The translations under genes and the position numbers were made by a program. A stretch of 64,000 bases of DNA from Marsupella aquatica (Eukaryota > Plantae > Marchantiophyta), in NCBI GenBank assembly GCA_973895155.1, contig OZ316892.1, positions 16,296,357 through 16,360,356 of the forward strand, in the 5' to 3' direction. This document shows positions 18,209 to 52,190 of this stretch, one piece after another. The notes below the pieces were generated by a model. That model saw only the letters and a program-made list of their open reading frames with translations, was not told where the DNA came from and ran no database searches. Positions within the stretch are counted from its first letter, which is position 1; each line of letters begins with the position of its first letter.

Positions 18209-19081
18209 TCACTCTGATTCAGAATCGCTAATGACCCATTCCTCACTTGTTGTCTCATAGTCCTCTCTGTAAGGATCCTGACCCTTCCGTGGCCAGGCCT
18301 CAAAAAGATCATAGTCCATTGGGTTTTGACGCTTCCCAGCTGCTACTGATTCCACAAGCCAAGCATATGAAACCACAAACACATTATGGGACATGACATA
18401 AAAGCGAATGTCTCCCTTCCCAAACTTGCGGCAGGCTTTGGGATATGACTTAGTAATGACATGAGTGGTGTCCTCTGTTATATTCTCCTCCACTGTCCCA
18501 CCTAGGTCAAGCACTGTGGACTTGTACACTTTGCACTTAACCTCTCCAATTCCCGCCTCCACAAATACCATGCTCAGCCCTTTCAGAATGGGGGTTGGTT
18601 GCTTCGTCTCCTCAGCCAACATACACTTCAGCCTTGTAGAGCTCTGTCCTTTGTTGAGTACAGGTCCATATTGGAGATCAGCAAGCCGTGCCTTTGCTTC
18701 CCAGACTTCTTGTTCAACCCAAGCTGATGCAGAAGCTTCTTCATCCTCCCACAACTCATATTGCTCAGTATCCTGTACAATCTTATGTGCTATGGAATCT
18801 GTGATCCAAGAGGCCTCAACTACTTTTAGGCCTTGCTTAGTAATTGCAGAATTCATGTAGGACCATGACCACTTCTTTATCACTGATAGCCATGTCCCTG
18901 CAACAACATGTGTAGTCTCTGGAGTGATGTCCTGAACTACAGTGCCATGGAGCTCAGAGAATCATTTCTGTACAGTTGGCCAATGCACTTTGGTCAACCC
19001 ATGCTGGCCATGGACCAAAATCGCTCTGACCCCTGTAAACACTGCTGGGTGGTCACACTTTCTACGTTTACCAGGCTCCAT
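18209..19081 (-). pseudogene. Tandem BRCT-domain gene (Pol-lambda-type BRCT) inside the CACTA, one in-frame stop
   Basis: Manual translation from ATG 19081 gives MEPGKRRK..VFTGVRAILV..QK*FSELHGTVVQDITPETTHVV..VVEASWITDS. A second repeat follows: ILKGLSMVFV..LGGTVEENITEDTTHVI..VVSYAWLVESV. The TGA is at 18962-18964. Confidence 0.8.
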
Positions 19082-25800: not shown

Positions 25801-27406
25801 AGAGTGTAGGACCTCCGCCAAGCCCAGGGCAGCAGCTCAATGAAACTCAATTTGCAACTCGTCTCACTCTCGCTCTTGCTGCAAAGAAAAAAAAGCGCAG
25901 GTCAAACTCCTTTGTGGCCTCAGTCCCCACCGCTTTCCCCAAGCTATGGACAACTACTAGCAGCTTGCGCTCACAGCATGACATCCAGGTCTTTAGCCAA
26001 CTGCACACTGGAAACCGAGAGAAGTGAGCGCAGTCACGCAAGGCCAAAAAAGACCAAAGTTGAGCCAAAGCAAAACTTTACTAATGTATTTATAGTCAAG
26101 CATGAGGGCAATCAGGTAAGCAGAAGACCACGCATTCCCGCAAAGAGTTGTAGGTTCTCGTCACTTCCTCGCCTCTGTATAGAAGGTCGATCGTTGTATC
26201 TCGGGTACCCAATGATAGTGGAGATGAATGCAAATAGGCCTCACCAATCGCCAGTCATCCGCGATAACCCTCCCGACAACCTTTGTAAACTCTGGACCCA
26301 GCCTCAACCTCACTCAGCACAGTAGCAAAACCTAGCAATGTCACCGCTGCAATGTTTTGTGCTTGCAATAAGCAGCCTCCTAAACCCACAGCTCCTTCCA
26401 CTGCCAACAAAATGCCAATGACTCAACCCTCATTCCAACCCCGAGCTCCCAATAGTAGCGAGAATCCAAGCCTTTGACTGCAAGCGCACAGCGGAGACAA
26501 GACACTCAAAGAAGCTCGATAGGATTCACTCAGGAAACCTAGGGCCCAAGCCTGACGATGTTCGGCTCTTCCTTCTCGCTCGCCAAATGCCGACACTCTG
26601 TGCGCGCGAAGGCACTCGTCGTTTCTCCCAAGGGTTTTGGCACAAGGGGTTTGGGAAAAACAGTCAATGGGCAAAGGCATTACCATGTAACACGTGGAAA
26701 CTTGTGGCATGGTCCATTAGGTGAAGGGGTTCATGAAGCCAATTGAGGGCAACACGCATTACAAGGAAGAGTAGGTAGAAGTGGTCTTGCGGCAAAGGCA
26801 TTGCATTGTACCCTTAACAAAAAGAGTCCCTAATATTGGGCTGTTCAATATTCCTAGATGAAGGGAGTTGCAACCATTTGAAATTGGCCAAGGGGTATAT
26901 TTGGAGACAGAATGCTGCCAAATGATGTTAGTGGGTTCAGTGTGTGTCTTTCTCTTTGTATGATGGAGTAACCAGTGGCCTGCATCATGGCGCGCGACTT
27001 GCAATTGCACCGACCTCCGGTACATATACCTATAATCATTTTGTCAATCATACATATAAAGTATATATGTATGGGTTGGATTTGGGATGTGGGTCGGCAT
27101 TATTATTTAATAAGAGCCAAAGTTATATTGTTCTTATATATGTGCAACCATGGTGATAAATATGGCAGAAAGCGCTATTATAATTGTGCTGAGTCACTTA
27201 TAAAACTTCAAAATAATTGCCTACACTAAGTTACAATTGCAACACTCCAAATAGTTATAGATATGACTCTCCAAAAATTCACCAAAACTTAGTTGAGAAG
27301 GTGTAACAAAGATGACACCAATAACCTTGGAGTCACTAATTTCCAAAGGTCTCAAGTAAGTCATGTAAGGGAGGGTCTCAGATAGGGCCGGTTTCTTCTA
27401 GTGAGT

Positions 27407-29714
27407 GTCAGCACGAGCCTTTGCACGGATTTCTAGCTTGTCCATGAAAAAGCATGGGTCGGTGAGAAAGTATGCTGATAGGTTACTAGACTTGGTTGAC
27501 AAGTACAACCCAAACACAGCCAAGTCTACTCAACGAGATTGGTTCATCAATGGGTTACCTTCTCGAATTGCTCACTACGTTAGAAGGGAAGGTGGCACTA
27601 CATTCGAAGAAGCCCAGGAAGCAGCCCAGAAATATGTAGATTCTGAGGTATCCGAAAAGAAGCGTGTAACGAAGGATCTGCGGAGAAATAAAAAGAAGGA
27701 TAGGAAGAAAAGGAAGAAGAGTAAATCTTCATTCAGTTCGGAGTCTGACGAGAGCGGAACTTCCAGTTCGGGTGAGACAAGTGAAGACTCGGGATCGAGT
27801 AGTACCACCAGCTCAAGTTCGAGTTTAGAGGATTTGAAAGGAAAAGGCAAAAGGGTGCAAAAGCCAAAGGTACCACAGAAAGCAAAGCAGCTTGACAAAA
27901 TAACGGACAACCTAACAAGCAAACTAAATAAACTATCAGTTAATGCGGCTATACTTAAACTACCGCGTAAACCCCCTCCTACAATCCGCAATAATGTGTG
28001 GTGCCCCAGATGTAACAATCAGGGACACTATCACCATGAGTGCCCCACTTTACAGAGAGCAGTAAACTACGGGGAAGAGGAGCAAACTTATGACTATGGG
28101 GATGTTTATGCGGTACCAGCCCCATTTTCTGGACAATATTTTCCTTCACCAACTGCTCCACCTCCCTATGCAGTACCAAAAACACCAGCACTAACTGCCT
28201 ATAATAGACCTGTTCCAAGACCACCAATGGGACCACCTGGTGGGTATCCACCTAGAGGAGCACCTCGGGAGAGAGGCACCTATTACAATTGTGGACAGAC
28301 TGGACATTATTCTCTTGAGTGCCCCTATCCCAAGAGAGAAGTGGGGTATACCCCTATTTGTGGAAATTGTGGGAAGGATGGACACTTACCAGTTGAATGC
28401 CCAAGCCCCCCTAAACCAAAAATGATAGTTAGATTTGCAAAAGAGCCCGTGAAAGAAGTCTCCAGAGCAGAGGACCTCAGAATGGTGTACACACAACAAG
28501 ATGAAGATCAATGCGGACGAATTACAGTGGAATCGGACGCAGATGACCTCCACAAAGTACACAATGTTTTCTCCCAATCATTAAGTGGAATTATTCCAGA
28601 TGTGGAACTACATGACTTGGTGCAAGATGAGGTTGTAGGTATGCCTCACAAGCGAGTCCAGGAAAGGGATAAAATTTTGGATATTTTTGCAACTACCCGT
28701 TCCAAAACTTCACACAAAACTTCAGCACACAAGGGTAAGGAGGAGACGAGAAGCAAAGACCTTAAGAAGCATAAAAAGCCTAGAGTACCAGCGGAAGAAG
28801 GAATCCCAAAGGAGAGTGATCCAGCATATGATAGGTACGACCCTAAATATTTCCAACCTGACATCTCCAATGAGATCCGCAACCAGATCCAAGACATAAC
28901 AGAAAAACTAGACCAGTACAAGGAACTAACATCTACCCTAGGGGCGGAAAAAAATAATATATCCGCATCTCAGAACGCTACAATGCCAAAACCAAAGGGG
29001 TATGACATTGTAGAGGTAGTCAAAAACCACCCAGCGAATATCACTGTGGGGGACTTATTGCAAGAAAACCCGGTGTATAGAAAGCAGCTAAAACTACTTC
29101 TTACCGGCAACAAGAGGAGAAAGAGACTACCTTCGGCTCAAGCCTTCCGTTTGGAATGGGAAGACAAGGGACCACCTGAAATAGAAGTGCAAATTTCAGG
29201 ATGCGTGTTAACTGATGTACCAGTGGATGGTGGGTCCAGCGTTAACATCATTACAGAGGATGCAGCATTTAAAATTGGGATAATCCAGTTTGAAAAGACC
29301 CTTCAGATCCTCCGAATGGCAGATCAGTCTAGAGTGGTACCTGTGGGTAAACTCACTCAAGTACCAACAGTCATTGGGGGACTAACCTTTCCATTAGACT
29401 ATGTAGTACTTCGACCAACAGGGCAGTCTACTTATCCAGTATTATTGGGTAGGCCGTGGCTGTATAAGGCCAAAGTCAAGGTAGACTGGGAGCGCAGACA
29501 GATGACTTTTGGGAAACCAAGAGTGACAATTAATTGGGCAGTGGACCCTCACCAAGGAGAAACCCAGACAGATACTGGGTACACCTCAGATTTTTCTGAC
29601 TCTTCCCTACAGGTAGAAGAGAGGGATTTTAACGTTGTTGATGTAGGATACCTGGACGAGGAAGAACCTGAGAGTGCCCCTTTCACTCAGGTTGACCACC
29701 ACGGATTGCTCTGA
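27407..29714 (+). CDS. gag: Gag C-terminal part with three CCHC knuckles plus aspartic protease of element B
   Basis: Knuckles CPRCNNQGHYHHEC, YYNCGQTGHYSLEC (first C lost) and CGNCGKDGHLPVEC. Protease motifs VDGGSSVNII and VLLGRPWL. Confidence 0.92.
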
Positions 29715-32622
29715 CGCCAGGAGAAGGAGGCCCAAGTGACGGGTCTGCCCGATGAACAGGAGAATTATCCCTGGCATTCCGTGGGCCAGGAACGTAAGGA
29801 AGGAATTGTAGACCCCCGTCAATGCCAGAAAATTGAAGTGGAACCAGGAAAGTTCATTAATATTAGCAACCACATCCAGGGAGAACTAAAGGAGAAGTAT
29901 ATCCAACTGCTGACTCAATACAAAGATGTCTTCGCATGGAGCCACCAGGACCTCAAAGGAATACCATCCCACCTAGGTGAGCACCGCATAGACTTGATTG
30001 AGGGAGCGGTCCCAGTACGGCAAAAGCAATACCGTTTAAACCCGAAGTATTCCAGCATGGTGAAGGATGAGTTAGATAAGCTTACAGCGGTTGGCTTCAT
30101 TTACCCTATCCTTAATAGTGATTGGGTCTCGCCCATTGTCATTGTACCAAAGAAAACAGGACCAGATGGGAAACCAAAAATCCGAGTGTGCCAGGACTTC
30201 CGGAAACTTAATGCTGCTACTAGGAAAGATCACTACCCTTTGCCCTTCATTGACATAATTCTAGACTCAGTGGTTTTGCATGAATTATACAGCTTCCTGG
30301 ATGGATATTCCGGCTATAATCAGGTTTCCATAAGGAGGGAGGATCAGGATAAAACTACTTTTACTACGGATTGGGGTACTTATGCCTTCAGAGTCATGCC
30401 ATTTGGACTATGCAATGCCCCTGGCACATTTCAGCGGATCATGATGATAATTTTCCAGGATTTTTTGAGAAAATTCTTGGAGATTTTTCTTGATGACTTC
30501 TGCGTATATGGATCATCCTTAGACCACCTGCAGCATTTAGAGCTCACCTTCCAGAGATGTCGTACCTCTCAACTTTGCCTTCACCCGGAAAAATGCTACA
30601 TTGGTATGAGAGAAGGAATCTTGTTGGGGCATGTCATATCTCAGAGAGGTATAGAAGTGGACGCAGAAAAGGTAAGGATCATTATGGCACTTACACCTCC
30701 TACCAACTTGAAAACACTTAGAGGATTTCTTGGCTACGTGGGTTACTATCGCAGGTTCATTCACAAATATGCGGATTTAGCTATGCCCTTAACCCACCTA
30801 CTGAAGAAAAACCAGGAGTACCAATGGACCTCGGAAAGGCAGCAAGCATTTGAGGTACTCAGGAATTATTTAACCAATGCTCCAGTTCTACAACCCCCAA
30901 ACTGGAATAAACCCTTCCATGTATATATTGATGCATCTGCATACTGTGTCGGGGCGGTGTTGAGCCAATTAGATGAAAATAAGAAAGATCACCCGATCTA
31001 TTACGCCAGCCGACAAATGAATAGTGCGGAAAAAAATTACTCCGTCACAGAACGAGAAGCCCTAGCTGTAGTCTTTTCTTGTAAAAAATTCCGACACTAC
31101 TTGCTAGGATATAAGACCATTTTTCATACGGACCACTCTTCCCTAAAATACTTGGTGAATCAGCCCGACTTAAGCGGAAGAATTGCTCGTTGGGTACTAC
31201 TTTTGCAAGAGTATGACTATGAGGTGCAGGTCAGACCAGGGAAACACCATGATAATGCAGACTTCTTATCTAGGTTGGAAGGACCTGAAAATGCAGAGGT
31301 ATTGTCTGACCAGTTTCCGGATGAACATCTATGGCACTTGGAGGGGGAAGAGTCTCAATATGCAGATATTGTACGAATGTTGACGGATGGCAGTTACCCC
31401 CCAGACCTAAATGCGGAAGAAAAGGCAGTGTTCCTTCATAAAGTAGGACCTTATACTCTGATCCGTGGCAACTTGTTTAAACTACTTCCTAACTAGAGAC
31501 TTCATCGGTGTTTGGAGGCAAGAGAAACCAATCAAGCCATTGCTGCGCTACACACCGAAACTGCAGGAGGGCACTATGCGGTTAACACTACAGTTCAAAA
31601 GATCAAAGATGCGGGATATTGGTGGCCCACAATGCACCGAGACACTTACAGATATATTCAGAGCTGTGACCCATGCCAGCGAGTGGGGAAACCCACAACT
31701 ACTTCTAAATGGCCACTCACTCCCATCTTACCACTCTCACCCTTCGAAAAATGGGGTATAGATTTCATTGGACCCATATCGCCTGCAGCAAGGAACAGTC
31801 GCAGCAGATACATTATCTTAGCCACGGATTATATGACAAAATGGGTCGAGGCTAAGCATACACGACGGAATGACGCTGCCACAGCTGCTAGCTTCCTATT
31901 TGAAAATATTATCACTCGTTATGGTTGCCCACTGGAGTTGGTAAGTGATAGAGGGTTACATTTTTTGAACACTACTATTGAACTCATCACTAGTAAGTAT
32001 TTGATTAAACATCGCAAATCCACTCCTTATAACCCAAGAGCTAATGGACTTACTGAACGTGCTAATGGAATAATGGGAAAGATACTCAACAAAATGGTTG
32101 AGGCACACAAAACGGATTGGGACTTGAAACTTCCATCTGCGCTGTGGGCCTACAGAACAGCTGAGAAGATCACCACTCTTCACACTCCCTTTTATATGGC
32201 ATTTGGTTTTAACAGTGTCACTCCCATTGAATTTGAAATCCCCACCGAGAGAATTGTTTCCCCACAAAGAACTATAGAACCTGAGAGTTTTTCTGCCCGC
32301 TTGGAAACCCTGGATATGTTGGAAGAGCACCGGTTGCTGGCTTTAGAGCAAACCCATCACCAACAAGAGAAAAGGAAGCTCCAATATGATAAGAAGCTAA
32401 AGACACCCACTTTACAGGAAGGAGATCTGGTCTTAGTATATGATTCAAGGTACATGTTCTTTCCTGGAAAACTACATACTCATTGGATTGGACCTTACAC
32501 AGTAAAGAAAGTATGGCCTAACGGATCCCTGACATTGCATACCCTAAGTGGAGACTCTGGACACGCGCATTAATGGCTTCCGAGTTAAGAAGTATTATCT
32601 TCCACCACCTGATGGCTTGTGA
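29715..32622 (+). pseudogene. pol: Pol of element B: RT, RNase H, integrase (in-frame stops at 29712 and 31494; frameshift near 32560)
   Basis: RT: DFRKLN, LDGYSGYNQ, MPFGLCNAP, FLDD. RNase H: DASAY, YYASR, EREAL, TDH. Integrase: H..GGHY, CDPCQ, WGIDFIG, SDRG, NGLTER, WIGPY. Confidence 0.95.
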
Positions 32623-38266: not shown

Positions 38267-38336
38267 AAAACCCTTAGCATGAGGAAAAAAAGAGAAAATC
38301 AGCCTATTCATTAAAAGTGTATTATTATTTGATTTA

Positions 38337-38661
38337 TGTACATTTGGGCAATGAAAAGTGTACTTTTGGGCTTGGAAAAGTGTACATTTGGCCAATGAAA
38401 AGTGTACATTTGGGGATAGAAAAATGTACAATTGGCCCAAAGAGTGTACATTTGGGCAATGAAAAGTGTAAATTTGAACATCAAAATAGGTACATTTGGC
38501 TTTAAAAGTGTACATTTGAGTACATTTGGCCTAGAAAGTGTACATTTGAGTGAAAAATGCATACATTTGGCTTAAAAAGTGTACATTTAAGTGCATTTGG
38601 TCTAGAAAGTGTAACTTTTAATGCAACAAAGTGTACATTTGGCCTAAAAAGTGTACATTTG
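38337..38661 (+). repeat. Left subterminal ~22-bp repeats (AAAAGTGTACATTTGG core)
   Basis: More than ten degenerate copies are visible directly. Confidence 0.9.
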
Positions 38662-38912
38662 CCTACCAACTCTTCTTATAATCATTTAAAAGAAAGGAAT
38701 GAATAGAAAAATATTTTTAATTATGTAGAAAAAGCAAACATTCATATTCATAATGATCAAAAGTTTAGAAAATGAGGAGATAGTATCAAATTAAAACTAT
38801 TAGAATAGTAAATAACTAGTACGTAAATTACTATGTTTGAATGAGTGACTATCTTAGTTACATAAAAACTAGTAACTATCTATTTAATTATTATAGCTTC
38901 TAACAACTAAGT

Positions 38913-41900
38913 CTACTTGTCCATCCTTTGAAGATAATTTTGGACAGTTTGTAGAACATTTCGAGGGATCTTCAAACCTCTGCCCGCCATGTTTTCTTCT
39001 TTCATTCCAGATTTAAAACCATACATTACAGAATTTGCATACTGCCAATGTTGAGTATTCTCACCAAACCCTAGATCTCGTTCCCAGTGGACATGAAACA
39101 ATTTAGATACCGCGCACTCTCAGTCACATCAAGTTTAGAGTGTTTAGGCCTCCACCATTCAACTGGGAACATTGGAGCGTACTGTCGAGGCAGAGAAGGG
39201 TTTGTTGAAGATGTAGTTGGGACTTCATGCTTTGGGTCCACCAAACCCAAAGCTCTCACCAACCAGAAATGACCTCCACCATTTTTATTCTCCCAATCAT
39301 CCTCGGGTCGAAGAAATACAAAGTTTCCTTCACAAATATCCTGTAAAGGAATCCATCGTCCTTGTTCTCTCTCAGCTCGAGATCCAACAAATGGTGTTGC
39401 TTGATCTTCCATCTCTTCCAAGACCTCATTTTGAAGAGCCGTTATCTCTGCATTCTCCTCATCTTCACTTGGAGGACCACTTTGTTCCGGTTGGTTGACC
39501 TTGTAACCAGTGCCGTGGTTAGTCTTAGGCCAAAATCTGTTTTTCAAGGGAAATTGAGTACTTCCCTCCCCTTCTAGTGCGAGCCCATTTGTCAACAACT
39601 TCACAATTCTCTCCCAATATTTCACAAGAGGAAATCTTTCCTTATATGCTATAGATGTCTCATCAGTGCAACTCCTTCTCAAAAATTCAAGGTACTTGTT
39701 AAGAAATGGGATAATCTCTTCAGATTTTTTGTGTATCTCTCCAATGGATTTAGCTAAGGGCTCTCCACTAGGTAAAAGAAGAGAATTTGTTGTCAGATCT
39801 GTTGCCCAAATGCACCTTCCACCAACTGGAGCCCAAGCTTGCTTTACATGGGACTTATACTGAAATATTGGTACATTATCTCTCATAGAGAAAAGAAATG
39901 ATACAGGTTTTGAGTGACCTTGAATATCTTTCACCTTGAAAGTTTGAAGATATTCTTTGTAAGATGCAACTTCTTGTATCAATCTGGGAACTGGATGAAT
40001 GCTCTCGCATTCCCATACCTCTGCCATAAGAGCAAGGAGGGTTGCAACTTCTTTGTGCTGAACTTGATATGATACCTTTGAAAAGAGTGCATCAACATCT
40101 TCGTGCGTATGACCAACCATTAGAAAAGACATTTGAACAGTTTCAAATACTCCTCTACTCACAAGCTCGCTACAAAATGCCATGACAGTCTGGTTTTTGT
40201 TGTCCTTTGCTGAATTATCCATCTGCAATGTTAGGTGCCTTGGCAAGGGCTTGAACGATGGACTGCCTTGCTCTCCTTGCATGTCTTCTCCTTCATCCTC
40301 ATCTTGTTGGTTTGGGACGGTCTCAGTCCGACTCTCAGCTCCATCTTCAGAACCAATATACCTATTCATCGGTATATTCTTTGGTTCCAAATAACCCGTC
40401 AAAAATGCTTCAAAGTCAAGTAGGGCTTGAAAGAAAGGTCTGTGAGGTTCCCAATGAAGGCCATCCAACATGTCACCTGTCTTGTCTCCATTGTACTCTT
40501 CAAGGTCTCAAAGACACTTAGCCAAGGATGTCACTGTGAAATCGGCATCTCCTGGCCAAAGGCCAGTGACACTAAAGTGTGCATAAACTCTTGGATCCCT
40601 CCCGTGGGTCAACATCCCTGTGAGAGCAATAGGTAGCGGCATTCCATGACCCGAAAGAGATTTAGGAGTACTAACCATTTTTGGAATCCATGTCTTTGCT
40701 TGATCCATCTTGTCGTGAATAATGCAAAGATATTCTCCTGGGTGTTGTTTGGCCATCACTCGATGAGCGTAGTAAACATATCTACGTGACATTTGCTCAT
40801 GAAGATGTTGCGCTCGCTTTTCTTCAATTTGAGCACGTTCTTTTTTCCTTCTTTCTCGCATCAAACTGTCTTGTATTCACAACAAAGAGTACACTTGGCA
40901 AATGCACCATCTTTATGAAAACTAAAGTTTGCAAATGAGTTGCTCCAGATCTTGTAGAGAGTATTCTCTATGACAGGAGGAAGCCCTTCTTCCTTCATCT
41001 TTGTTCTCACATCTTCCAGAATCTCTAGCTTCTTGTAACACGCCGGAAGACGGTACTCAGTAGAGTCTGTCCCATGTGCCCCTCCATAAGGCATATGAGG
41101 CATGGGCTCTGCATTTCGAGTCAAAAAATCCTCCAACAGAGCTCGTGCATGCAAGGTATTTGCCCTTGTTTTCATCAAGCCCGTATTGCCATGGAACCCA
41201 ATTTTGCAACCCTCCACATATCTCCTTTTGTAATCATAATATTTGGTGTGGCTAAAACCGTGGATAATTGCAAATGCATGTCTGCATACGACCATACCCT
41301 TAAGAACATGGTGTCCCTTATCACGAACATCATCCTCTCTATAGTGAAAGAGGTTGAAAATGTGTGACGTTTTTGACTCGCTTGACATCCCATGAAATTC
41401 CATCCTAATATCTTCGATGTTTTCCCTTGGCATAATGAGACAACATTTTTGCTTGCAACAATTTTCTCTTTTCACGTCATCAATTGACGCCTCTGTTGTT
41501 TTTGAAATTGCCTTGGTTTCCAACAACCTCCTCTTCTTTTCATTAGGATCTACTTGATTCCTCTTGTTGAAATTGTACGGCCTTGAACACAGTACTCCTC
41601 TATCACTTACATCCGCATTGAGTTCATCCCTATCCATTGAGTCCATCCTCTCAGAACCTTCCACCAAAATGTCTGACAAAAATTTTCCATTTGCAACTAG
41701 TTTTGTTGAATCAATCCGCCATCGAATCAAACTCACTACTCCCTTGTGGATGTTGGGAAAGTATTGTGCTGCCACGACATCTTTCACAGCAATCCCAACA
41801 TGGTCATCACCAAGAATTTCATCATCAACTGCTGCTGTCACTTGAGGGACAGTGATCGTTCCAGTGGCAACCATTTTGGTTCGATCCAAACCAGTGTAGA

Positions 41901-42684
41901 GTTCAACCAACTCTGACATCCAGTTTGCCCGATGAAAATAGTCACACCTAGTGTCCGTGGTGTTCGCCAAACAAGACTGTGAAACAAAATTTGCCTTGTC
42001 CTTCTGCTTCTTAGAGGAAGATTTGTTGCTCCCATCAATATCAACATTCCATACTTTATTGTGGACGTCAACCACATCCCATAGAACCCAGGAGCCCTTT
42101 GCCTCTTCAATTGTTGTAGCTCCACCATGTGCGTAAGGTAAAGTCTTACTACCATGGATCACATCTGTGACTTTTACACTAACCCGAGACTCACCGAGTA
42201 ATATGTTATGACATCTCTCCATTGGATCGATCTTGAAAACAACTCCAAAGGCCACACAATGGCCAGAGATAAACATTTCAACCTCATCGCCTGGCCTTAG
42301 GGTGGTCGAAGCATCCTCCTCTACATTTGCAAAATTATGGATGTTGTTATCTTTTTGAGTCGAACAACTACCAATACTGATGCGTTTTTGAGTAATCTTA
42401 TCCGCAGATCGATATGCACATGACATATCCCAAATGACACATGAGTCAATGGCATCATGAAGATTTTCTGCCCTAGGCATTGGAAAAGGGAGCTTCCTAG
42501 TCTCACCAAAGGCCTTCTCAATGAGAACCCCAATTCGATTCTCTCCCAGCACAATATTTTGAACACTCTCTCGCGGATCTGTCTTTTGAACTGTCCCATT
42601 TCCAACGTCGTAACCATCGATTGTCAAGGTAACATCATCGCCCCTAGAAAACCTTTGAGACATCCTTTTCCTATTTTCCTGCAC
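38913..42684 (-). pseudogene. Sola-like DDD transposase with three N-terminal En/Spm-TNP1-like repeats; frameshifted
   Basis: Motifs CCKQKC, VCRHAFAIIHG, FAKCTLC, IIHDKMDQAK, LQMDNSAKDNKN and FLMVGHTHEDVDALFS. Frameshifts near 40862 and 39095; TGA at 40508. Confidence 0.75.
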
Positions 42685-42749
42685 ACTGAAAAAAATGGAT
42701 TAAAACCAACCTCATGCAAATTTTGATTCAGACTACTATCCTCCAATTT

Positions 42750-43565
42750 CGGATTTGGACTAGGACCATCCGAGTTCGGATTTGCACCGGGACCATCCAA
42801 GTCTAGATTAGGACTGCAATCCTCCGAGTCTAGATTTGGACTACGATCCTCCGATTCTGGATTTGGCCTGGGACCATCCGAGTCTGGATTTGGACCGGGA
42901 CCATCCAAGTCTAGATTTGGACTGCAATCCTCCGAGTCTGGATTTGGACTACAATCCTCCGATTCTGGATTTGGATTGGGACCATCTGAGTCCGGATTTG
43001 GACCGGGACCATCCAAGTCCGGATTTGGACTGCAATCCTTTGAGTCTGGATTTGGACTACAATCCTCCGATTCTGGATTTGGACTGGGACCATCCCAGTC
43101 CAAGGTTGGACTAGGACCATCCCAATCCAAACTAGGACTTGGACCATCCCAATCCAAACTAGGACTTGGACCATCCCAATCCAAACTAGGACTCGGACCA
43201 TCCCAATCTAAACTAGGACTTGGACCATCCCAATCCAAACTTGGACTCGGACCATCCCAATCCAAACTAGGACTTAGACCATCCAAGTCCAAACTAGGAC
43301 TCGGACCATCCCAATCCAAACTTGGACTCGGACCATCCTAATCCAAACTTGGACTCGGACCATCCAAGTTCAAACTTGGACTCGGATGATCCCAATCCAA
43401 AGTTGGACTCGGACCATCCCAATCCAAACTAGGACTTGGACCATCCAAGTTCAAACTTGGACTCGTATGATCCCAATCCAAAGTTGGACTCAGATGATCC
43501 CAAATGAATGCAAACTTGGACTAGGACCATCAGAATCCAAACTTGGACTAGGACCATCCTAGACC
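42750..43565. repeat. 27-bp tandem array of the palindrome TTGGAYTNGGA-CCA-TCCNARTCCAA
   Basis: Unit such as ggactcggaccatcccaatccaaactt, about 30 copies. Lies between a minus-strand GTGAGT donor (43766) and a polypyrimidine-CAG acceptor (~42680). Confidence 0.92.
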
Positions 43566-44099
43566 AACCCATGATGTAATGGGAGATAAACTTCAAACAT
43601 CTTAAGCTAAGAAAAATCCAAATTTAGGAAGACCCCGTATTTTACGGATCTCCCTAGATATGGTGTAGCCTAAAGTTTGCGTGGTCTTAAGGCAGACCCT
43701 AATGTCTACATACAGTTTCATGAAATAATGGAACCTTATATTTGAATGCATTAACCTTATACTCACCTTAGTATTAAGATCTGGTAGAAGATGAATATCA
43801 CATCCAAGGGGTATACATTGTTGTTTGAATAATGGTAAAAACTTCCCAGAAGCTTGAAATACAAGCTATATGCCACTAAATCTTGGGAGTAAAAAACAAA
43901 CTGAACCCTAAACCACACATGTCTGTAAAAGATAAACTGAGAGGACTCCAAAAGTCAAGAAGCTGGCTAAGCTGACCCAATGAAGGTAAGTGGCTCAATA
44001 CATAACACTTTAAGAGAAACTCCACTCCGGATTACATGGAGCTTAGATTTGGGAAACTAGAACAAGAATGAGCTCCGAAGTGGGCGTCTCCCAAATTAT

Positions 44100-44614
44100 A
44101 CCCTTTGCTCGAGTCGGCTCAACCGGAAATCGCGTGAAGATAAGGGTTGAGTACGCGTTCACCTTAGCTTGCGGACACACCTTATCTTCACGAGCCTATT
44201 TGCGCGGGGACTACCATGGAAGGCTGTTAGGTAGGTAGGACATCAAGGAAGGAGGCCGTATGCAAGGTGAGGGCAACGGGCCGTACGCCATAGCAGGCCG
44301 TATGCAGTAGAAGGAGGCAACCGGCCGTACACAGGCCGGGGTGAGGCAGTAGGGGGTAAAGGGACGGAGAGGTCCAGCCAGGACCTCATTCTCATTCTCT
44401 CACTCCTCGCTCTCTCGCTCTCTCGCTCTCCTCTTGCTCTCCTCCTCACTCTCTTGCTCTCCTTGCTCTCCGCTCTCTCTCCGCTGTTCGTTCTCTCTCT
44501 GCCTCCCCGCCTCCGCCTGCCTCCGCCTTCCACCTTCCACCTCCATTCTTTTTTATTGCCCTAGATCGGACGCCTGCTAAGATGCCACGTGTCACGCTGC
44601 CACGTGTTAGAAAG
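44100..44614. promoter_or_regulatory. Probable divergent promoter region between the transposase and the ParB-MTase gene
   Basis: GC-rich, with a CT-rich tract at 44387-44550, two GCCACGTG G-box/ABRE motifs (44584, 44599) and a 13-bp inverted repeat (44133-44145 / 44180-44192). Confidence 0.45.
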
Positions 44615-47600
44615 ATGGAAGCGAATCGCGTCCTTGTGATGTCCTACATGGAAGAAACGGAGGAGTTTGACCTCTCCTCTATGAGCGACAGTGTGGAACT
44701 TGCACTCGAAGACTCTAGACAATTTCAATCACGAATCCCTAGTAAGTATCTATCACCTATCCTCCCTAAGTCTTAGAGGACTGGGACCATCCGAGTCCAA
44801 ACTTGGACTCAGACCATCCCAATCCAAACTTGGACTCGGATGATCCCAATCCAAAGTTGGACTCGGACCATCCCAATCCAAACTTGGACTCGGATGATCC
44901 CAATCCAAAGTTGGACTCGGACCATCCCAATCCAAACTTGGACTCGGATGATCCTAATCCATCTGGGAGATTGAATCCCGATTGTAGGAGCAAGTCTAAA
45001 ACCATCTCAAGTTGGACTAGGACCATCCTAATCCAACAAGAGTTATTCGAATGTTTTAAAGGTTTCAAGTCTAACATGGATGACGTTTATGATGCAGGGA
45101 GTGATCTTGTTGTTTTCAAACCCGTGATTGCACCGACCCACTGCCTGGACGGATTCTTACTAGATGAGAGATCCCCACGCTTTCGATGGGGGCTTGAGTT
45201 CTCAAGAACCCCGCTTAATAATGAAGTGCCATCAACCACGATTGAACCTGTTTTGACCTTAAAGTGCAGAGAAAATGATAGCCTGACTTTTGTTTGCGGA
45301 CCTGTGGTCTCTATTGGCATTGGAGGGAGAGGGATGAATACGGTCATTCTCGAGATGCATGATAAGTCCTATTGGGTTAAAGTTAACCTTCTGTCAAAGG
45401 CATACTCCTCTGAATTCAATGTCGAATGGCACGCAAGTGGGGAATTGAGCATTTTGTCAATGGGATTTTTTCCAAAGACCTATGACACAAAGAAGTTGGT
45501 TGCCGGGGTAACTGGTATGCTTCCAGTCGACATTATGTATGGGTTTCAATATTTGAAACTCAACATGATGAAGCACCAAGGCAATTTTTCTTTTGCAACT
45601 ACCTGGACGTTAAGCAATTTACTTGAGAAAGCTGGATTGTTATCGTTGGAGTCGGAGGAGCCTGGTGTTTTAATTGATAAGGATGTTGCATTTGCTCCCA
45701 AGTTTGATTTAGTCAAAGCAAAGCAATGGATAGAATCTTTGTCCAAGATGAGAAAGCTTCCAGCGGTGAATACAAACCCTGTGCCCGAGAAAGCGCCAGA
45801 GAAAGCTCCAGAACCTACAACAGAGACCGCGGGAACTACAGCAGCGACCTCTCAAAGAGCAGTGGGAAGACGAAAACAAAGCCAAAGGAAACCTCCGGTT
45901 GAGAAGAAACTTCCGGTTGAGAAGCCGAGTACGAGAAGCCGAGTTGACAAGCCAGTTGACAAGCCAGTTGACAAGCCGAGTACGAGAAGCCGAGTTGAGA
46001 AGCCAGTTGAGAAGAAACGTCCGGTTGAGAAGCCGAGTGCAAGTGAAAAGAGACCAAGACAGAAGAAGAAACAGAAAATTGATAGTGCCATCATGGATGA
46101 CACTACAAAAAACCTGACAGTGCATTCACAAGATGTGGACGAGCAGTTGGACGCTCCTGAGGAGAAGAAGGTCTTAGAAGGTAATGAGGTATTGCAACAA
46201 ATGGAGCAATATTATACGTTTGGGATCAATTCGATATTTTCTATTCCTGTAGACAGTATTTTCCCTGCGTCGGCAAGACTCTGTTACAGAATGTTGAATG
46301 CAGAACATGTAAAGGAGGTGGCCAATTCCATGATAAGAAATCCGGGGCATGAACCACACATAGCAGACTTGATTCCTTACACTACAAAACATAGAAACCT
46401 AATGCAGTATGACAACACAGAATCAGATAGGAGGGACTTTGTAGCAGCCGTGAAAAAGGGCGAGGTTCAATTCCTTGCCATTAGCGGTCAACATTCGGCT
46501 AGAGCAGCCAGATGGATTCGAGAATGGGCAAACAAGGATGCCAAGCTGACAGCATTGGCGAAAAAGCTGGAATTTCAAAAGTCAAGAATATTATCTCATC
46601 GAACACCATCGTCAATATTAGTTGAGCATTCAATGCGATCTAATGCGATCAATAGCACGATGGTGTTTCAGTCATGCTTCAAAGATACAGTCGTTCATGC
46701 TAGGCGACAATTTGTGGAATGTGGAAAACCTAGCCGGCCAAAACATGGGGACAACAAAACAAACGCTCAAGACAATCAAAAATTTCAGGTACGAAGTCTT
46801 ACTGCTTGATGGGTACAATACCGTAGATTCATGCACATTCAGTAGAATATTTCCACTGATATCGCCTAGTTTTGTGTTGGACCGGGATGGTCCCAGTCCA
46901 AATGGATTCATGCACATTCAATAGAATCTTTGTCCATTGATATCGTCTAGTTTTGTGTTGGATTGGGATGGTCCCAGTCCAAATGGATTCATGCACATTC
47001 AGTAGAATATTTCCACTGATATCGCCTAGTTTTGCGTTGGACTGGGATGGTCCCAGTCCAAATGGATTCATACACATTCAATAGATTATTTTTCCACTGA
47101 CACTGTCTAGTTTTGTTCTGGACTGGGATGGTCCCAGTCCAAACTAAATCATGCACATTCAATAGAATATTTCCACTGATACTGTCTAGTTCTGTGTTGG
47201 ACTGGGATGGTCTCAGTCTGCACCTGAGTGCTATCAAACAATTGAGTTATGGAGAACTAATAGACTTTCCTTTGCAATTGTAGGATTGGTTGGCTCTTGC
47301 AAGAATGACCATGGGAAGGAAAGATTGTCGAAATGTTTACTGGTTACTGTTTGCGGACGATGCTCTTTTTGAGTTATGGAGTTTGGTATGCCAGTTGTGG
47401 TTGGATGGGAAACTTCCCGATGGAGCTGGGGTAGAAGGAAATGAGAAGTCTGAAAAAGCAATTACTGTTGCCATGTTTCGTTGTTTTGATGGTGAGTTGA
47501 TCTCACAACGAGACATCACAAGAATACTGACGCGGGTGAAGTCAGGAAAGGTATTGCTAAAGAAAGATGCCTCTAATAAATCAGACATGCCATCTATAGA

Positions 47601-49668
47601 GGAGTTGGCCAAAGATGTGAAGATCGTGCGGAAACTGAAGTCCCTTATTGAAGACTACTATTGCACCAAAGATGCGGTGAATTTCCTGGCAAATACTAAT
47701 TGGGGGAAAGTAGTGGAGGTTCTTCCTACGCTAGCAATTGATTCAGAGTTCAGCAGGTGTCGAAGAGCCGTTGGCGAGGTCTATCTTGCCAACCTTTTAA
47801 AACCAAATCATACGTGGGAGAGCGCAATCTTGCCGACGGCATTGGCATTCCGCCTAGATGATATATACTGCCAGAAATTTGGCGGAGGATCACGTTCTCA
47901 GACCCTACCATGGGCTACATTTTTTAGCGACAATCTCATGAAGACCATTGATCCAGAGTCATTGCAAGAAGCTCCTCCGACCTGCCCTCTTGCCATTGTT
48001 GATTTTAGCCGGCTTCCGCAAAAACAATGGACTGAAGCAGAGATTCTTGTTCTCTTTGAATACATTGTGGAGCTTCCACAAAATCCCATGATTGTTGTGA
48101 CGATAACAGTTCATCCTGGACAACTTGCATTGAATGTCCATGGTGCCCTTCGTAAACTGGGACAAGAGAAAGCTTTGACCATTCACATTGAGTATGGGAG
48201 TTATTCTCGAGATGATCAACCGCACCCTCATGACTCATGTTGGGGTGGGGGGATTGAAGAAGTTATCTTTGCGGGGATTTCTCGAGATGAAGACGTCAAT
48301 TGGAATGAAGTTTTCAAGCCCAACTATCCAAAGCCAAAATTCTTGTATACTGCAAAGGATGTTGATTACGAAGTATGCAAGATCGACAAGGGAAAGGGGA
48401 AGGCTAAGGAATCAGATGAAGGGACACAAAACGACGACCTAAAAGTGGTTTTGGACCCGGAAGAGGCCGTCAAGATTATGAATATGGCCCCTCGATTTGA
48501 GACAGTTGGCAGTCGCGGAGGGTGGGTTAATCCTCATGCCAAACCCACGCGGATGATCCGAAGGATTATTGAATCCTTGTCAGAACCGGGAGATTTGGTT
48601 CTAGATTTTTTCTCCGGTGGCCAAGTCATGAAGACATCATTTTTTTGCGATAGGGAATGCTTTGTTTATTGTGACTCTCACTCCGAGAGGCATTTTGTGG
48701 AAGCTTTTGCTTCCTACCTTTGCGAGAGAGTTCCCTCACTTAAAGCTCATTGTGAATCACTTGCTGAAAATTCTCGACAATGGGCTACCATTGTTGCGGC
48801 TGTAGCTGTCGCTGTTGAATCCGATGGTTCTGAGTCTGAAGATGTTGCTGACAAAGTGGCTGAAGGCGTAGAGGCATCAGAGGAGGCATATGTCATGAAT
48901 TTGGATGACCGTGTTGGTCAAGGTGAGCCTTACGATGTAGATGATGATATTGGACTTGCACCAAACCGTTCATCTGGTTTAGATGACATCCCTCCGGGGC
49001 CCAATGAAGTTCAAGTTGATGATAACTTGGACAAGGATGATCCCAATCCAACAACGCCGGGAGGACAGATGGAGCAACTGGAAGGAGCAAGGGTTCATAC
49101 GTTTGATCATCTTTCTTCAACCAATCTGATCAATGAAGGCGCAACGAGGCTCGGAGATTCAAATGAAGCTGAAACTAAAGAATTGACTCGGGGGGAGACC
49201 AAGGGGGAGACTGGCGGATTGCCTGACATTCCGATCAATCCAGGAGGAAATGCATCAACAGTTGCTGACAACCAGGCAGGTGCTTCAACTTGTCCTGACA
49301 CACTCTTTTCAGCTTCTGATGACAAATTGGTGTTCGTTCGTTCACACTCGGGGAGTCCTCTTGTCCTTCCGCTCTCAAAAAAGAAAGGAAATAGAGTTGG
49401 ATCAACTGGATGGAGGTCATTGGAATGCGACGCACGATGTTACGTGTGGAAAAGTGGGCCAAATCGAGGCCAAGAAATATCATTGGATGCTGCTCATTCA
49501 ATTCTCAATAAGGAGGAGTATAAGAGTGGAGAATTGGGGTTGATAACTCCTATTTGGACTTCACCTTATTGGGTAGAACAAAGTACTTCAGATGTCAATT
49601 TTGAAATCCAACAGGAGCTTGGTGCTGACATGATTATTGATGAATACGGATCTCTTATTTTGGAATGA
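44615..49668 (+). CDS. ParB/Srx-like domain fused to a beta-class N6-adenine/N4-cytosine DNA methyltransferase-like domain (predicted exons 44615-44741, 45062-46788, 47284-49668; ~1412 aa)
   Basis: Both GT-AG introns keep the reading frame. ParB-like: IPVDSI..R.LNAEHV..VANSM..FLAISGQHS. MTase-like: FFSDNLM, LAIVDFSR, NPHAKPTRMIRRIIESLSEPGDLVLDFFSGG..DRECF. Confidence 0.75.
44777..45036. repeat. Second 27-bp palindrome array (predicted intron 1 of the ParB-MTase gene)
   Basis: Same unit as 42750-43565. Confidence 0.88.
46827..47220. repeat. Five ~79-81-bp tandem units, each with the palindrome TTGGACTGGGA-TGG-TCCCAGTCCAA (predicted intron 2)
   Basis: Units start at ~46827, 46906, 46987, 47066 and 47147. 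The core is the 27-bp-array motif in the opposite orientation. Confidence 0.9.
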
Positions 49669-49885
49669 AATTCAGCCTTTGACTTTGTATTTATTCATAT
49701 CAATCTAAAATACTTCTCGGTCTCACAGAATGCGCTCAAGAATTAAAGTCTCCATATCCGTCTACACATTGTGAGGCTTCTAAAAATGGTATGTAGGTTA
49801 ATTTTCTTTTTTGTCAGCCATTGTCTTGTATTTTTGGACTGAGACAATCCTAATCCAAAGTTCACTTTTGGTCTTTTCTCTAAGA

Positions 49886-50944
49886 ATGGTGTTTGGTGCA
49901 CTTGCAAAATCGAGACCTGGTCCCCTCAAGCGGAAGTTGCTGATTTTGGACCTTAATAAAATACTTTGGGATTCTATTGAATTCCAAAGCAAGGGCACAT
50001 CCAGGAATATTGTTACCTCAAGTGGAGTGCATTGGGATAGATCAAATGGAACTAGTCGCATGTATACAGAGAGGCCACGGCTCCATGAGTTTCTAAAGTT
50101 GGTTTTTGACCGGTTTGACGTTGCAATTTGGACATGTGCTGGGATGCCGCGAACAGTGAAAATGTTGAACATGATGTTCACAATTGAGGAGCGGTTGAAA
50201 CTGAAGTTTGTATTCACACAGGTGGAAGCCTTTGACACAGGCATTCAAAGGTGTGACGTTACAAATGGAAAGGCAAATGTGCTATTGAAGGATTTTCGGG
50301 TGGTATGGAGTGCATTTGGAAATCTATATGATGAAACCAACACACTCCTTGTGGATGACTCCCCCTTGAAGGCATTTGCCAACCCAGACATGACCGGACT
50401 ATTTCCAGTGCCCTACACGCATGCCAATCGTGGAGACAATTTTCTTCTAACAATTCTTTGGCCATGTCTTGAGAAACTGTCACATGCAAGTGACATTCGT
50501 TGTTATCTTCTCCTAAACTCTCCAAAGTGGTCTCTATTGCACATTAAGAGAGACAAGGCAAAAAATGAGATTACTTATGATCAACTTAGTAAGAGATGTG
50601 CAGCAAAAATTTGGAAGTCACAGTATAGGCATAGTGTGCTGGACCTCAATAACAATGAGATTCCTTGGGCTGTGAAGCACCGTATATGTAGCTTACGTCC
50701 TGAGGTGGAACTTGACGATGCACTTGTCACCTCACTTGCTAGATCATTTGTAGGACGGGAATATTCAGGTCTATATAGAGAAAATCCCAGACATTTTTTG
50801 CGGGAGATTATAGCAGTTAGGAACAACACCACCAAATTTCATCTCCCTGAAGATAAAGGGAGTTGCAACCGTGACATTAGGGTAGATAGTAAAGGAGACA
50901 AAGGCACGTGCTCAAATAAATATTGTAAGGAGCACTTTGTTTAG
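49886..50944 (+). CDS. FCP1/SCP (NIF) family HAD phosphatase-like protein, intronless
   Basis: Motifs KRKLLILDLNKILW, ERPRLHEFL...FDVAIWT, LKDFRVVW and NTLLVDDSPLKAFANP. Confidence 0.88.
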   Translation: MVFGALAKSRPGPLKRKLLILDLNKILWDSIEFQSKGTSRNIVTSSGVHWDRSNGTSRMYTERPRLHEFLKLVFDRFDVAIWTCAGMPRTVKMLNMMFTIEERLKLKFVFTQVEAFDTGIQRCDVTNGKANVLLKDFRVVWSAFGNLYDETNTLLVDDSPLKAFANPDMTGLFPVPYTHANRGDNFLLTILWPCLEKLSHASDIRCYLLLNSPKWSLLHIKRDKAKNEITYDQLSKRCAAKIWKSQYRHSVLDLNNNEIPWAVKHRICSLRPEVELDDALVTSLARSFVGREYSGLYRENPRHFLREIIAVRNNTTKFHLPEDKGSCNRDIRVDSKGDKGTCSNKYCKEHFV

Positions 50945-51200
50945 AGATCTGACTCATGTTAAGCGCATTAGATAGTAAAAATGGGTGTCAGCCCTGGATA
51001 TTCATTGTAAGTTTGGACACAATTGTATATAATTATTTTCACACATTATCAATCAATGGTCCTTGCCTGGGCTTCTTTGTGCGGAAATGTTTTTACAAGT
51101 ATGATCTCTATCCCATGGTTCTTTGTGAACTAATAAATAATATAATACTATTATAATTAATATAATATAATATAATATATTAATATAATACTAATAAGAT

Positions 51201-51289
51201 TTGGCCTATAAAGTGTACATTTAGGTATCAAAAAGTGTATATTTGGGCTTCGTAAAGTGTACATTTGGGGACATAAAAGTGTACATTTC
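51201..51289 (+). repeat. Right subterminal AAAGTGTACATTT repeats
   Basis: Four copies, in the same orientation as the left-end copies. Confidence 0.85.
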
Positions 51290-51337
51290 AGGACTGATTT
51301 GTGAACAAAAGAAAATACACTTTTAATGAATAGGCTG

Positions 51338-52190
51338 ATCCATCCTCGAAGGAACAAGTACATAATCCTGGCCACTGATTATGCAACTAAGTGGGTGGAG
51401 GCCAGGCCGACAATGAAGGATGATGCAATTACTACGGCTCAATTCATGTTTGAGCAGATCTTCACCAGGTATGGCGCACCACTAGAATTAGTTAGTGATA
51501 GAGGAACCCATTTTCTGAATGATATAATTAGTCGTTTAAATAAGCAGTATTTAGTTAGACATAGGCCTACTACTCCTTACCACCCAAAGGCAAATGGGTT
51601 GACAGAACGAGCCAATGGAATTGTAGGAAAGATATTAAATAAGACCGTAGCCCAGAACAAACTCAATTGGGATGATAAATTGTTTGCTGCTGTTTTTGCT
51701 TACAATTTAGCCTATAAATCCACTACCGGTCATACACCCTTTTTCTTAACATTTGGACAGGAAGCTCTGGTACCCATGCAACTTGAGATTCCTACATTTC
51801 AAGTTACAATTAAAGAGAGAGCCTCAGAGGAGGAAAGCCTAGAGGAGCGAGAATATAGATTAGAAGCTTTAGAAGAGGCCAGAATAATTTCAGCCGAGAG
51901 AGTAGAATATAGACTAAATACCATGAAGCAACAGTATGATAAAAAGTTGAAACCAGTTAGTATTCACACATGAGATCTTGTATTACTTTACAACAGTAGG
52001 TATAGTAGATTTATTGGTAAACTTTACACTCGCTAGTTAGGACCCTTCAGGGTAGCCATGAAGTTCTCCAATGGCTCCGTGCAATTGGCCAACATAACTA
52101 GAGAGGTGTCCCTAGTTCGCATTCACTATGACCGCCTCAAGATATACTATATGGACAAAGATGAAGTTGTTCACGAGGACGCTTCACAAT
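51338..52190 (+). pseudogene. pol: Integrase C-terminal fragment of a family-A Gypsy element
   Basis: YIILATDYATKWVEA, SDRGTHF, NGLTERAN, then a degenerate GPF tail with stops. Confidence 0.9.

Follow-up and report, generated by a model that had tools for sequence, protein, structure and literature searches.

The 64-kb window analysed here (64,000 nucleotides of contig OZ316892.1 of Marsupella aquatica, Marchantiophyta, positions 16,296,357 to 16,360,356) contains a DNA transposon of 13,042 bp at 38298-51339. The element has three genes. They encode a DUF7869 transposase, an accessory protein with a PH-like domain, a ParB fold and a methyltransferase-like region, and a NIF phosphatase. A 25-bp palindrome occurs in the element in about 45 copies in total, mostly in three stretches that are predicted to be introns. 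We propose that a DNA-binding protein of two-fold symmetry may dock at the palindrome arrays, the likeliest candidate being the ParB-fold accessory protein of the element itself. The probability of this reading is put at about 40%.

Copies, arrays and predicted introns

The palindrome was defined as TTGGAYTNGGA-NNN-TCCNARTCCAA and searched with the pattern TTGGAYTNGGANNNTCCNARTCCAA. The null for the counts was a set of 100 dinucleotide-preserving shuffles. Thirteen exact matches to TTGGAYTNGGANNNTCCNARTCCAA were found (shuffle mean 0.00, maximum 0). At up to three mismatches there were 36 matches, all within 40307-49858, and again none in any shuffle (mean 0.00, maximum 0). The matches are split into 21 in 42755-43567, eight in 44776-45036 and four in 46877-47142, and the remaining three lie one each at 40307, 49027 and 49834. 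A weight matrix trained on 32 good units scored these isolated copies at 33.9 bits (49027), 30.8 bits (49834) and 27.3 bits (40307), compared with a top score of 4.1 bits across the 51 kb outside the element. In the 64-kb window the motif is enriched in the non-coding parts of the element and rare elsewhere. An earlier first-pass annotation of this DNA had suggested a check on whether the motif is limited to the transposon family, and within the window it was indeed confined to one transposon. When metagenome contigs were scanned for the motif, four single sites and no array were obtained, about the number expected by chance (a hand estimate). The contig depth of the arrays in four DNA runs was 0.3-5 times that of their flanks. 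These depths argue against a separate satellite of far greater abundance.

Most of the copies are organised in three arrays. Array 1 (42731-43567) has about 30 units of 27 bp, and the 27-bp phase is kept for 28 units. In its left part degenerate units form a 108-bp higher-order repeat, and its right part consists of good palindromes. Tandem Repeats Finder reported a period of 27 at 42751-43100 (13.0 copies, 77% matches, 0 indels), the 108-bp higher-order period over 42731-43122, and a period of 27 at 43079-43559 (17.6 copies). Array 2 (44776-44962) has seven units of 27 bp arranged in 54-bp dimers, for which the same program gave a period of 27/54 at 44778-44961 with 6.8/3.4 copies. The segments 44785-44944 and 43277-43436 share 93% identity over 160 bp in direct orientation. 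Arrays 1 and 2 are therefore one lineage, array 2 being a block copy of part of array 1. Array 3 (46826-47221) has five units of 79-81 bp, each made of a 56-bp spacer and the palindrome with its centre inverted. Here the reported period was 81 at 46826-47218 (4.9 copies), and the motif starts are spaced by 81, 79, 81 and 79 bp. The palindromes of the 27-bp arrays are centred on CCA, those of the 81-bp units on TGG, and the 25-mers at 43078-43102 and 47119-47143 are 100% complementary. The first-pass annotation had described a palindrome with 27-bp and 79/81-bp periods, on which the counts, the shuffles and Tandem Repeats Finder agree, and had placed the 79/81-bp units in the opposite orientation, as the centres and the complementary 25-mers bear out. 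The 27-bp arrays that it listed are real, but the left third of the first array is degenerate and the two arrays are not independent.

Four further copies are isolated. The copy at 45012-45036 is exact and stands 4 nt ahead of a predicted acceptor. The degenerate one at 40307-40331 (3 mismatches) is located in an acidic stretch of about 85 codons that interrupts the DUF7869 profile, whose positions 48 and 55 flank the stretch. The copy at 49027-49051 (1 mismatch) lies inside exon 3 of the accessory gene, where it is read as LDKDDPNP, in a linker that is not conserved in three homologues. The last, at 49834-49858 (1 mismatch), is placed 27 nt upstream of the phosphatase ATG. Single copies in coding sequence and before the phosphatase ATG had been noticed earlier and were recovered at 49027 and 49834. 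The motif is present in or beside all three genes, so that the statement that it marks every gene of the element can be kept. Other genomic copies of the element, seen in contigs of two runs, carry a tandem duplication of about 70 bp around the 45012 copy (44979-45048, with a joint from 45048 to 44979), which is a third repeat period built on the palindrome. Array length also varies among genomic copies, with contig joints that skip 246, 320 and 130 bases.

Three other candidates were rejected. Contig joints that end inside motif copies (44845, 46984 and 49039) were not used as evidence because the matched side was shorter than 30 letters. An array junction, AGTCTAGATTTGG, resembles the subterminal repeat of the element, and such junctions account for 2 of the 21 matches to that repeat, at 2 mismatches, which is within the chance expectation of 1.9. 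GANTC and GATC were dropped as methylase targets within the motif, since they occur in only some unit variants and are absent from the 81-bp units.

All three arrays fall in predicted introns. In the transposase gene, a 5'-untranslated region (5'-UTR) intron is predicted on the minus strand at 42686-43766 from splice signals in the sequence, and it is 77% array. The leader has the donor AAG|GTGAGT (exon end 43767) and the acceptor TTTTTTTCAG|TG (exon start 42685), and the exon starts 22 nt ahead of the ATG opening the long open reading frame (ORF). On the plus strand, the predicted exon 1 of the accessory gene (44582-44741) is an open frame with an ATG at 44582 or 44615 and no homologue support. 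It is followed by predicted intron 1 (44742-45040), with phase-consistent GTAAGT...AG borders and 71% motif. The acceptor at 45040 leads into LFECFKGF..., and the homologues begin at the equivalent of exon 2, without the repeat. Intron 2 of the same gene (46789-47283, plus strand, GT...AG, phase 0) is 79% array. A Calypogeia fissa homologue reads ...SRFQ|DWQV... across its joint, two further homologues end Q|V, and other genomic copies diverge directly after 46790 into GTGAGAAAC.... As for the claim that the motif was amplified in introns, the three predicted introns are 71-79% filled with it, but the outside support concerns 46789-47283 only.

Arrays 1 and 2 begin 199 and 34 nt within the predicted first introns that flank the divergent promoter. 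Introns make up about 433 of the roughly 2633 non-array non-coding bases of the element (about 16%). The chance that three array sites all fall in predicted introns is 0.164^3, or about 0.004 by hand count, a value that has to be read with the fact that the arrays had already been seen when two of the three introns were predicted. If these two predicted introns are wrong, their arrays still stand upstream of conserved coding sequence.

The same stretches could be read as coding repeats, with the 27-bp units translated now or once into disordered acidic and proline-containing N-terminal repeats of two proteins. In favour of this, ORF 44770-46809 runs through array 2 into exon 2 without a change of frame, and the transposase strand of array 1 has 237 open codons. 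Translation of the palindrome gives LDxDxPxP from either strand (LDSDHPNPN on plus, LDWDGPSPS on minus), and the 49027 copy in exon 3 is in the same frame. Of the distinct unit variants, 7 of 18, 6 of 14 and 5 of 13 are synonymous in the sense frames, compared with about 20% of possible changes. However, the unit has no stop codon in any of its six frames, and frames other than the sense ones share a similar synonymous excess (8/18 and 7/14). No in-frame ATG lies upstream of either array, the frame of array 1 ends out of frame with the transposase ORF, and the arrays are bracketed by good splice signals. Moreover, LD.D.P.P was found in 0 of 106 homologous proteins, and the 40307 copy is read in another frame. 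A coding origin of the repeats is judged to be highly improbable.

The accessory protein as candidate binder

The plus-strand ORFs 44770-46809 and 47284-49668 belong to one accessory gene. The product of its exon 2 (45041-46788, plus strand) has a PH/PTB-like domain, which a K-rich linker joins to a ParB N-domain fold with the motif SGQHS. Exon 3 (47284-49668, plus strand) encodes a helical region, a beta-class amino-methyltransferase-like region and an acidic linker. A phmmer search with the exon-2 protein gave 101 homologues. The AlphaFold model of exon 2, made with 64 relatives as the alignment, is confident, with two domains and a predicted local distance difference test score (pLDDT) of 78.7. 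In the fold search with the C-terminal domain, 7bnk_B was the best match (Z 9.2, root-mean-square deviation 2.2 Å, 94 residues). Nine chains had a Z of at least 8, all of them ParB or Noc, and 7bnr_A was ranked second. The structures 6sdk, 7ol9 and 8qa8 are also among the ParB/Noc/KorB fold matches. An independent all-against-all fold search added PadC, the ParB-N of pNOB8 and KorB at Z 7.4-7.5. The top 12 rows from Foldseek were all ParB, Noc, Srx or PadC, with E values of 4.5e-3 or weaker and none reaching 0.001. On the strength of the model, the ParB N-domain fold in the accessory protein is taken to be real. The fold alignments end at about residue 534 of the model, and KorB alone reaches 576. 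At the aligned site the family motif SGQHS is conserved in 45-54 of 56 sequences. The homodimer prediction for the ParB-fold domain scored 0.00, which gives no verdict.

Sequence searches were less informative for this region. Against the PDB, the single sequence gave nothing and the profile gave only lysine-rich chance matches. Pfam at E<=10 on the ParB-like exon gave nothing useful, and Protein Atlas returned a weak DUF3723 lead for the ParB-like region.

Residues 25-235 of exon 2 (45133-45765) are PH/PTB-like, with Z of 5-6.3 to FERM F3, PTB and the PH domain of TFIIH p62. A PH-like domain is not mentioned for the algal ParB-methyltransferase proteins in the available parts of the reports on them. 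In-frame coding repeats of 12, 39 and 51 bp at 45888-46014 give a lysine/proline-rich VEKP/VDKP linker between the two domains, which is disordered in the model.

Exon 3 carries the NPxxKP...DFFSGG motifs of beta-class amino-methyltransferases, and both motif I (FxGxG), which binds S-adenosylmethionine, and the NPxxKP-type motif are present. Pfam PF01555 reached 28.1 bits on exon 3 (cut-off 26.7) over 29 residues, and a 4-sequence profile of the exon matched M.RsrI at E 4.6e-5 over 98 positions. The AlphaFold model of exon 3 from 4 sequences had a pLDDT of 42 and was unusable.

Proposed docking sites and other explanations

The first-pass annotation had read the motif as parS-like or VANC-like binding sites for an element-encoded dimeric protein, a reading that is plausible and in part supported. 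Several lines of evidence lead us to propose that the arrays serve as docking sites. The motif is specific to the element, with 36 copies that all lie in 40307-49858 and none in the shuffles. It recurs in several contexts, namely the periods of 27/54/108 and 79/81 bp, the duplication of about 70 bp and the four isolated copies. All three arrays are in predicted introns, two of which flank the divergent promoter, and the element encodes a candidate binder with a ParB N-domain fold. There are also precedents in VANDAL21, Plavaka and Sola1 elements, which are compared below. We infer the binder, the binding and its effect alike. Loading of the accessory protein would take place at the arrays, next to the divergent promoter, and from there the protein would act on the chromatin or the transcription of its own element. 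Possible modes are a VANC-like anti-silencing, an enhancer action like that of baculovirus homologous regions (hr) and IE-1, or a ParB/KorB-like loading and spreading. Tandem duplication would be a fast route to more sites, and introns would tolerate such growth near promoters.

Several observations weigh against this proposal. Arm complementarity in the left third of array 1 (42755-43076) is limited to 4-7 of 11 positions, and only 4 of the 12 units there match the motif at up to three mismatches. The unit amplified most often is not a perfect palindrome; it has two asymmetric departures, and its arms are complementary at 9 of 11 positions. Since arrays 1 and 2 are one lineage, independent amplification occurred twice and not three times. 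Some genomic copies are without parts of the arrays or have a different sequence in intron 2. In the protein, Pfam found no ParBc in 65 family members, and no helix-turn-helix (HTH) or other DNA-reading domain was identified, the fold matches being limited to residues 391-534 of the model, the ParB N domain. In CTP-binding ParB the arginine motif is GERRxRA, and in the accessory protein SGQHS stands in its place. The motif IV site, whose column was assigned by judgement from the alignment and not from a structure, reads VDFSR or VDFGR and not the DPPY-type (D/N/S)PP(Y/F/W) in 4 of 4 proteins. To judge from these residues, the methyltransferase-like domain may be catalytically dead or otherwise employed. 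The first-pass annotation had spoken of a ParB-methyltransferase protein; this is right at the level of fold and motif, but both activities are doubtful.

The variation among the units is a further point on the same side. In 37 distinct units, 81.8% of the arm cells were paired, compared with 82.8% in shuffles of the 3' letters. The covariation score was 0.148 against 0.155 when shuffled, and 387 of 500 shuffles scored at least as high. Cells changed on both arms numbered 5, and 6.7 in shuffles. Among the five 81-bp units, 7 of 25 columns were variable in the palindrome and 21 of 58 in the spacer. Tests for selection on the palindrome, three in all, either came out negative or lacked power. 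Therefore, the earlier claim of selection on the motif is unsupported, because the arms do not covary, the palindrome is no better kept than the spacer and the top unit is imperfect. The missing covariation of the arms is compatible with half-site recognition. The evidence left in favour of function is the distribution of the motif.

The main rival to docking is that the arrays are a tolerated, slippage-prone minisatellite. An ancestral palindromic word would have been expanded by replication slippage and unequal exchange without any function and spread between sites via ectopic conversion or template switching, and it would survive where a change of length is harmless, as in introns, the acidic linker and the leader. 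Degenerate units, arms without covariation and a spacer as conserved as the motif fit this explanation. The same is true of the block copying of array 2 from array 1 and of the different array lengths among genomic copies. Both coding copies lie in acidic non-conserved stretches, and the 27-bp unit is a multiple of three and thus harmless in frame. However, slippage does not explain how a word of 25 bp reached six or more places within 10 kb, in both orientations and as part of two unrelated units. The three arrays occupy predicted introns and not the roughly 2.2 kb of other non-coding DNA (the hand-counted 0.004), and unrelated transposons with ParB-like genes also have inverted-repeat arrays, as far as the available parts of the reports tell. 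A minisatellite without function is considered somewhat unlikely.

A role at the level of RNA was also weighed. In this case the intronic arrays would fold into long imperfect duplexes that either compact long introns for splicing or feed the production of small RNAs regulating the element. The predicted introns fold more stably than their shuffles (-111.2 vs -74.9 kcal/mol, z -7.55; -163.8 vs -129.5 kcal/mol, z -5.05), and the transposase intron folds at -529.9 kcal/mol. All of the arrays lie within introns predicted to be transcribed. Tandem repeats are known as sources of small interfering RNA and as targets of RNA-directed DNA methylation (RdDM), according to the available part of the source (PMC10398659). 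On the other hand, no compensatory changes were found in the arms, and this lack of compensated variants argues against a hairpin function. Allowing G-U pairs gives neither strand a consistent advantage in pairing. At 49834 and 49027 the copies form only one stem of 11 bp each, which is below the length needed for dicing. An RNA-level role is regarded as improbable.

Finally, the palindromes could be internal binding sites of the transposase. The first-pass annotation had named the N-terminus of the transposase as a possible binder, and transposases can regulate their own copies sequence-specifically, as described in the available part of a recent report (bioRxiv 10.64898/2026.08.24.746577). 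However, the element has a separate end-specific repeat, AGTGTACATTTGG, in the layout that is usual for transposase sites. It is present in 13 copies on the left (38335-38662, plus strand, Tandem Repeats Finder periods 20-22) and in 4 copies on the right (51212-51290, plus strand, orientation as at the left end). At up to 2 mismatches AGTGTACATTTGG gave 21 matches against 1.9 expected. These subterminal repeats are likely the transposase sites and distinct from the palindrome, which is absent from the terminal 770 and 395 bases. In the N-terminal ORF of about 600 residues no DNA-binding domain was recognised, and Pfam at E<=10 gave nothing useful there. Therefore, binding of the transposase to the palindromes seems very improbable. 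All 17 subterminal AGTGTACATTTGG repeats point in the same direction at both ends and are not mirrored.

The element itself has the ends of a terminal-inverted-repeat transposon. The left terminal inverted repeat (38298-38331, 34 nt) is 91% complementary to the right one (51306-51339, 34 nt), with which it pairs, and subterminal repeats and a DUF7869 ORF lie between the inverted ends. The target-site duplication may be a 2-bp AT. A blastn comparison of the element with the other 51 kb of the window showed no similarity. Logan contigs of four DNA runs from two organisms covered the whole element, with summed depths of hundreds to tens of thousands and many variants. Therefore, the element belongs to a high-copy family. 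Its neighbours in the window are also mobile-element genes in part. A CACTA-type transposase (Transposase_21, DUF4218) and an adjoining ORF with BRCT domains lie at 14044-17646 and 18209-18961, a Gypsy-type gag-pol lies at 27405-32573, and an integrase-core ORF at 51305-51973 abuts the right end of the element.

The transposase gene (39071-42663, minus strand) has a DUF7869 core (Pfam PF25273, E 9.8e-39) and a predicted ATG at 42663-42661. A 612-codon ORF precedes the DUF7869 ORF on the minus strand. No homologues of this N-terminal ORF were found within the length range searched, so that the predicted transposase start is unsupported. Protein Atlas returned DUF7869 only, and DUF7869 was not found in the literature search. 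The coding frame is interrupted by a TGA at 40508-40510 and shifts near 40861-40876, between the 612-codon ORF and the DUF7869 ORFs; reading these positions at face value, the transposase of this copy may be defective, or small unrecognised introns may be present. The 0.8 kb between the two genes (43767-44581) are predicted to hold 5'-UTR sequence and, in view of the gene layout, probably a shared divergent promoter. A CT-rich microsatellite tract (44396-44485) and two CACGTG boxes (44586-44606) are found near the first ATG of the accessory gene. The NIF/FCP1-like phosphatase gene occupies 49886-50944 on the plus strand (Pfam PF03031, E 5.3e-15). In 3 of the 4 DNA runs the contigs are about 3-10 times deeper over its segment 50032-50695 than over the rest of the element, and this depth suggests extra copies of the phosphatase segment in other elements or in deletion derivatives.

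Comparable systems and meaning

The bacterial pairs ParB-parS, Noc-NBS and KorB-OB have the N-domain fold in common with the accessory protein. ParB, Noc and KorB bind palindromic sites as dimers, and the sites are often clustered near their own genes. The sites parS, NBS and OB are 13-16 bp long; in contrast, the motif described here has 25 bp with 11-bp arms. The accessory protein also differs in that an HTH was not found and the arginine-rich CTP motif is replaced by SGQHS. Because the host is a eukaryote, a partition function as in ParB-parS is not expected.

Closer parallels come from algal transposons, for which, as for the plant and viral systems that follow, the comparison draws on the available parts of the cited reports. 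Accessory proteins with ParB-like and DNA-methyltransferase domains have been noticed in algal transposons since 2025. The Plavaka giant transposons (EnSpm/CACTA-type) of the red alga Bostrychia moritziana carry the accessory genes PAG2, with a DNA methylase domain of the PF01555 type, and PAG3, with a ParB-like N-terminal domain whose best HHpred match is 7BNR (10.1101/2025.02.11.637652). Their authors proposed that the ParB-like protein binds and modifies its own element (10.1101/2025.02.11.637652). In both systems tandem inverted-repeat arrays adjoin the ParB-like gene; in the Marsupella element two arrays are in the predicted introns of the accessory gene and one is 1.2 kb upstream. The same structure, 7bnr, was also the second-ranked match in our fold search. 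However, the Marsupella protein unites the ParB fold and the methylase-like region with a PH-like domain, and SET and 2OG-oxygenase domains are absent. Its element has a DUF7869 transposase and not EnSpm, and the arrays occupy predicted introns of two genes, the third gene being marked by single copies. The host is of the plant lineage, and the closest named homologues are from a liverwort; the likeness to Plavaka is one of arrangement.

A second case is Sola1-1_Ec32 of Ectocarpus, whose accessory protein, about 1100 residues long, carries a methyltransferase domain of the N4-methylcytosine/N6-methyladenine (4mC/6mA) type behind a ParB-like domain (PMC12477816). This protein is transcribed divergently from the transposase and has been proposed to bind and epigenetically modify its own transposon (PMC12477816). 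It resembles the accessory protein in the union of ParB-like and methyltransferase or methyltransferase-like parts in one protein and in the divergent transcription from the transposase. On the other hand, the transposase belongs to another superfamily (Sola1), motif arrays are not mentioned in the available part of that report, and motif IV in the Marsupella protein reads DFSR, so that activity is doubtful.

In Arabidopsis, VANC21 binds a 9-bp motif that is tandemly amplified in introns of two VANDAL21 genes and upstream of a third (PMC5735166). The binding was demonstrated by chromatin immunoprecipitation sequencing and electrophoretic mobility shift assay, and the repeats change fast between copies (PMC5735166). 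The VANDAL21 repeats are also RdDM targets (PMC10398659). An element-specific short motif in the non-coding parts of three genes, with a tandem gain that varies by copy, is a feature of both elements. The architecture of the Marsupella element fits that of VANDAL21, where an element-encoded accessory protein binds the motif; here such a protein is a candidate. However, the VANC motif is 9 bp long, non-palindromic and in one orientation, whereas a 25-bp palindrome in two orientations is found here. VANC is unrelated to ParB, and the VANDAL21 transposase is Mutator-like. Pfam named no VANC on the ORFs of the element, a search in which no VANC sequence or profile was compared.

The hr of baculoviruses are dispersed arrays of units of about 64 bp, each with a 24-bp imperfect palindrome, and they act as enhancers via IE-1 (PMC4535591, PMC2834656). 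This unit design resembles the 79/81-bp units with their 25-bp palindrome. In contrast, a baculovirus is a virus and not a transposon, the hr are also replication origins, and IE-1 is unrelated to the proteins of the element.

A transposon of this kind has already been proposed for algae. What is new here is the DUF7869 transposase, the fused three-domain accessory protein, the intronic arrays and the plant-lineage host. A wider picture, which we hold to be unlikely at present, would be a plant-lineage transposon with its own ParB-type loading system. A dimer of the accessory protein would load on the palindromes in the first introns to both sides of the divergent promoter, spread over the element as ParB and KorB do from parS and OB, and shield or mark the chromatin, so that the palindrome would be a private address for anti-silencing. 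Unrelated transposon superfamilies in red, brown and green algae would follow the same logic.

Self-recognition by transposons is known in detail for very few elements, VANDAL and VANC being an example. Should the arrays prove neutral, they would be a useful warning that a repeat within a transposon need not be a binding site. Liverworts include transformable model species, and the compact three-gene element makes the proposal that such a protein binds and modifies its own element directly testable. The palindrome may offer a precise 25-bp candidate target for ParB-like/methyltransferase transposon proteins, a class that, in the available parts of the reports, has been without a defined target so far.

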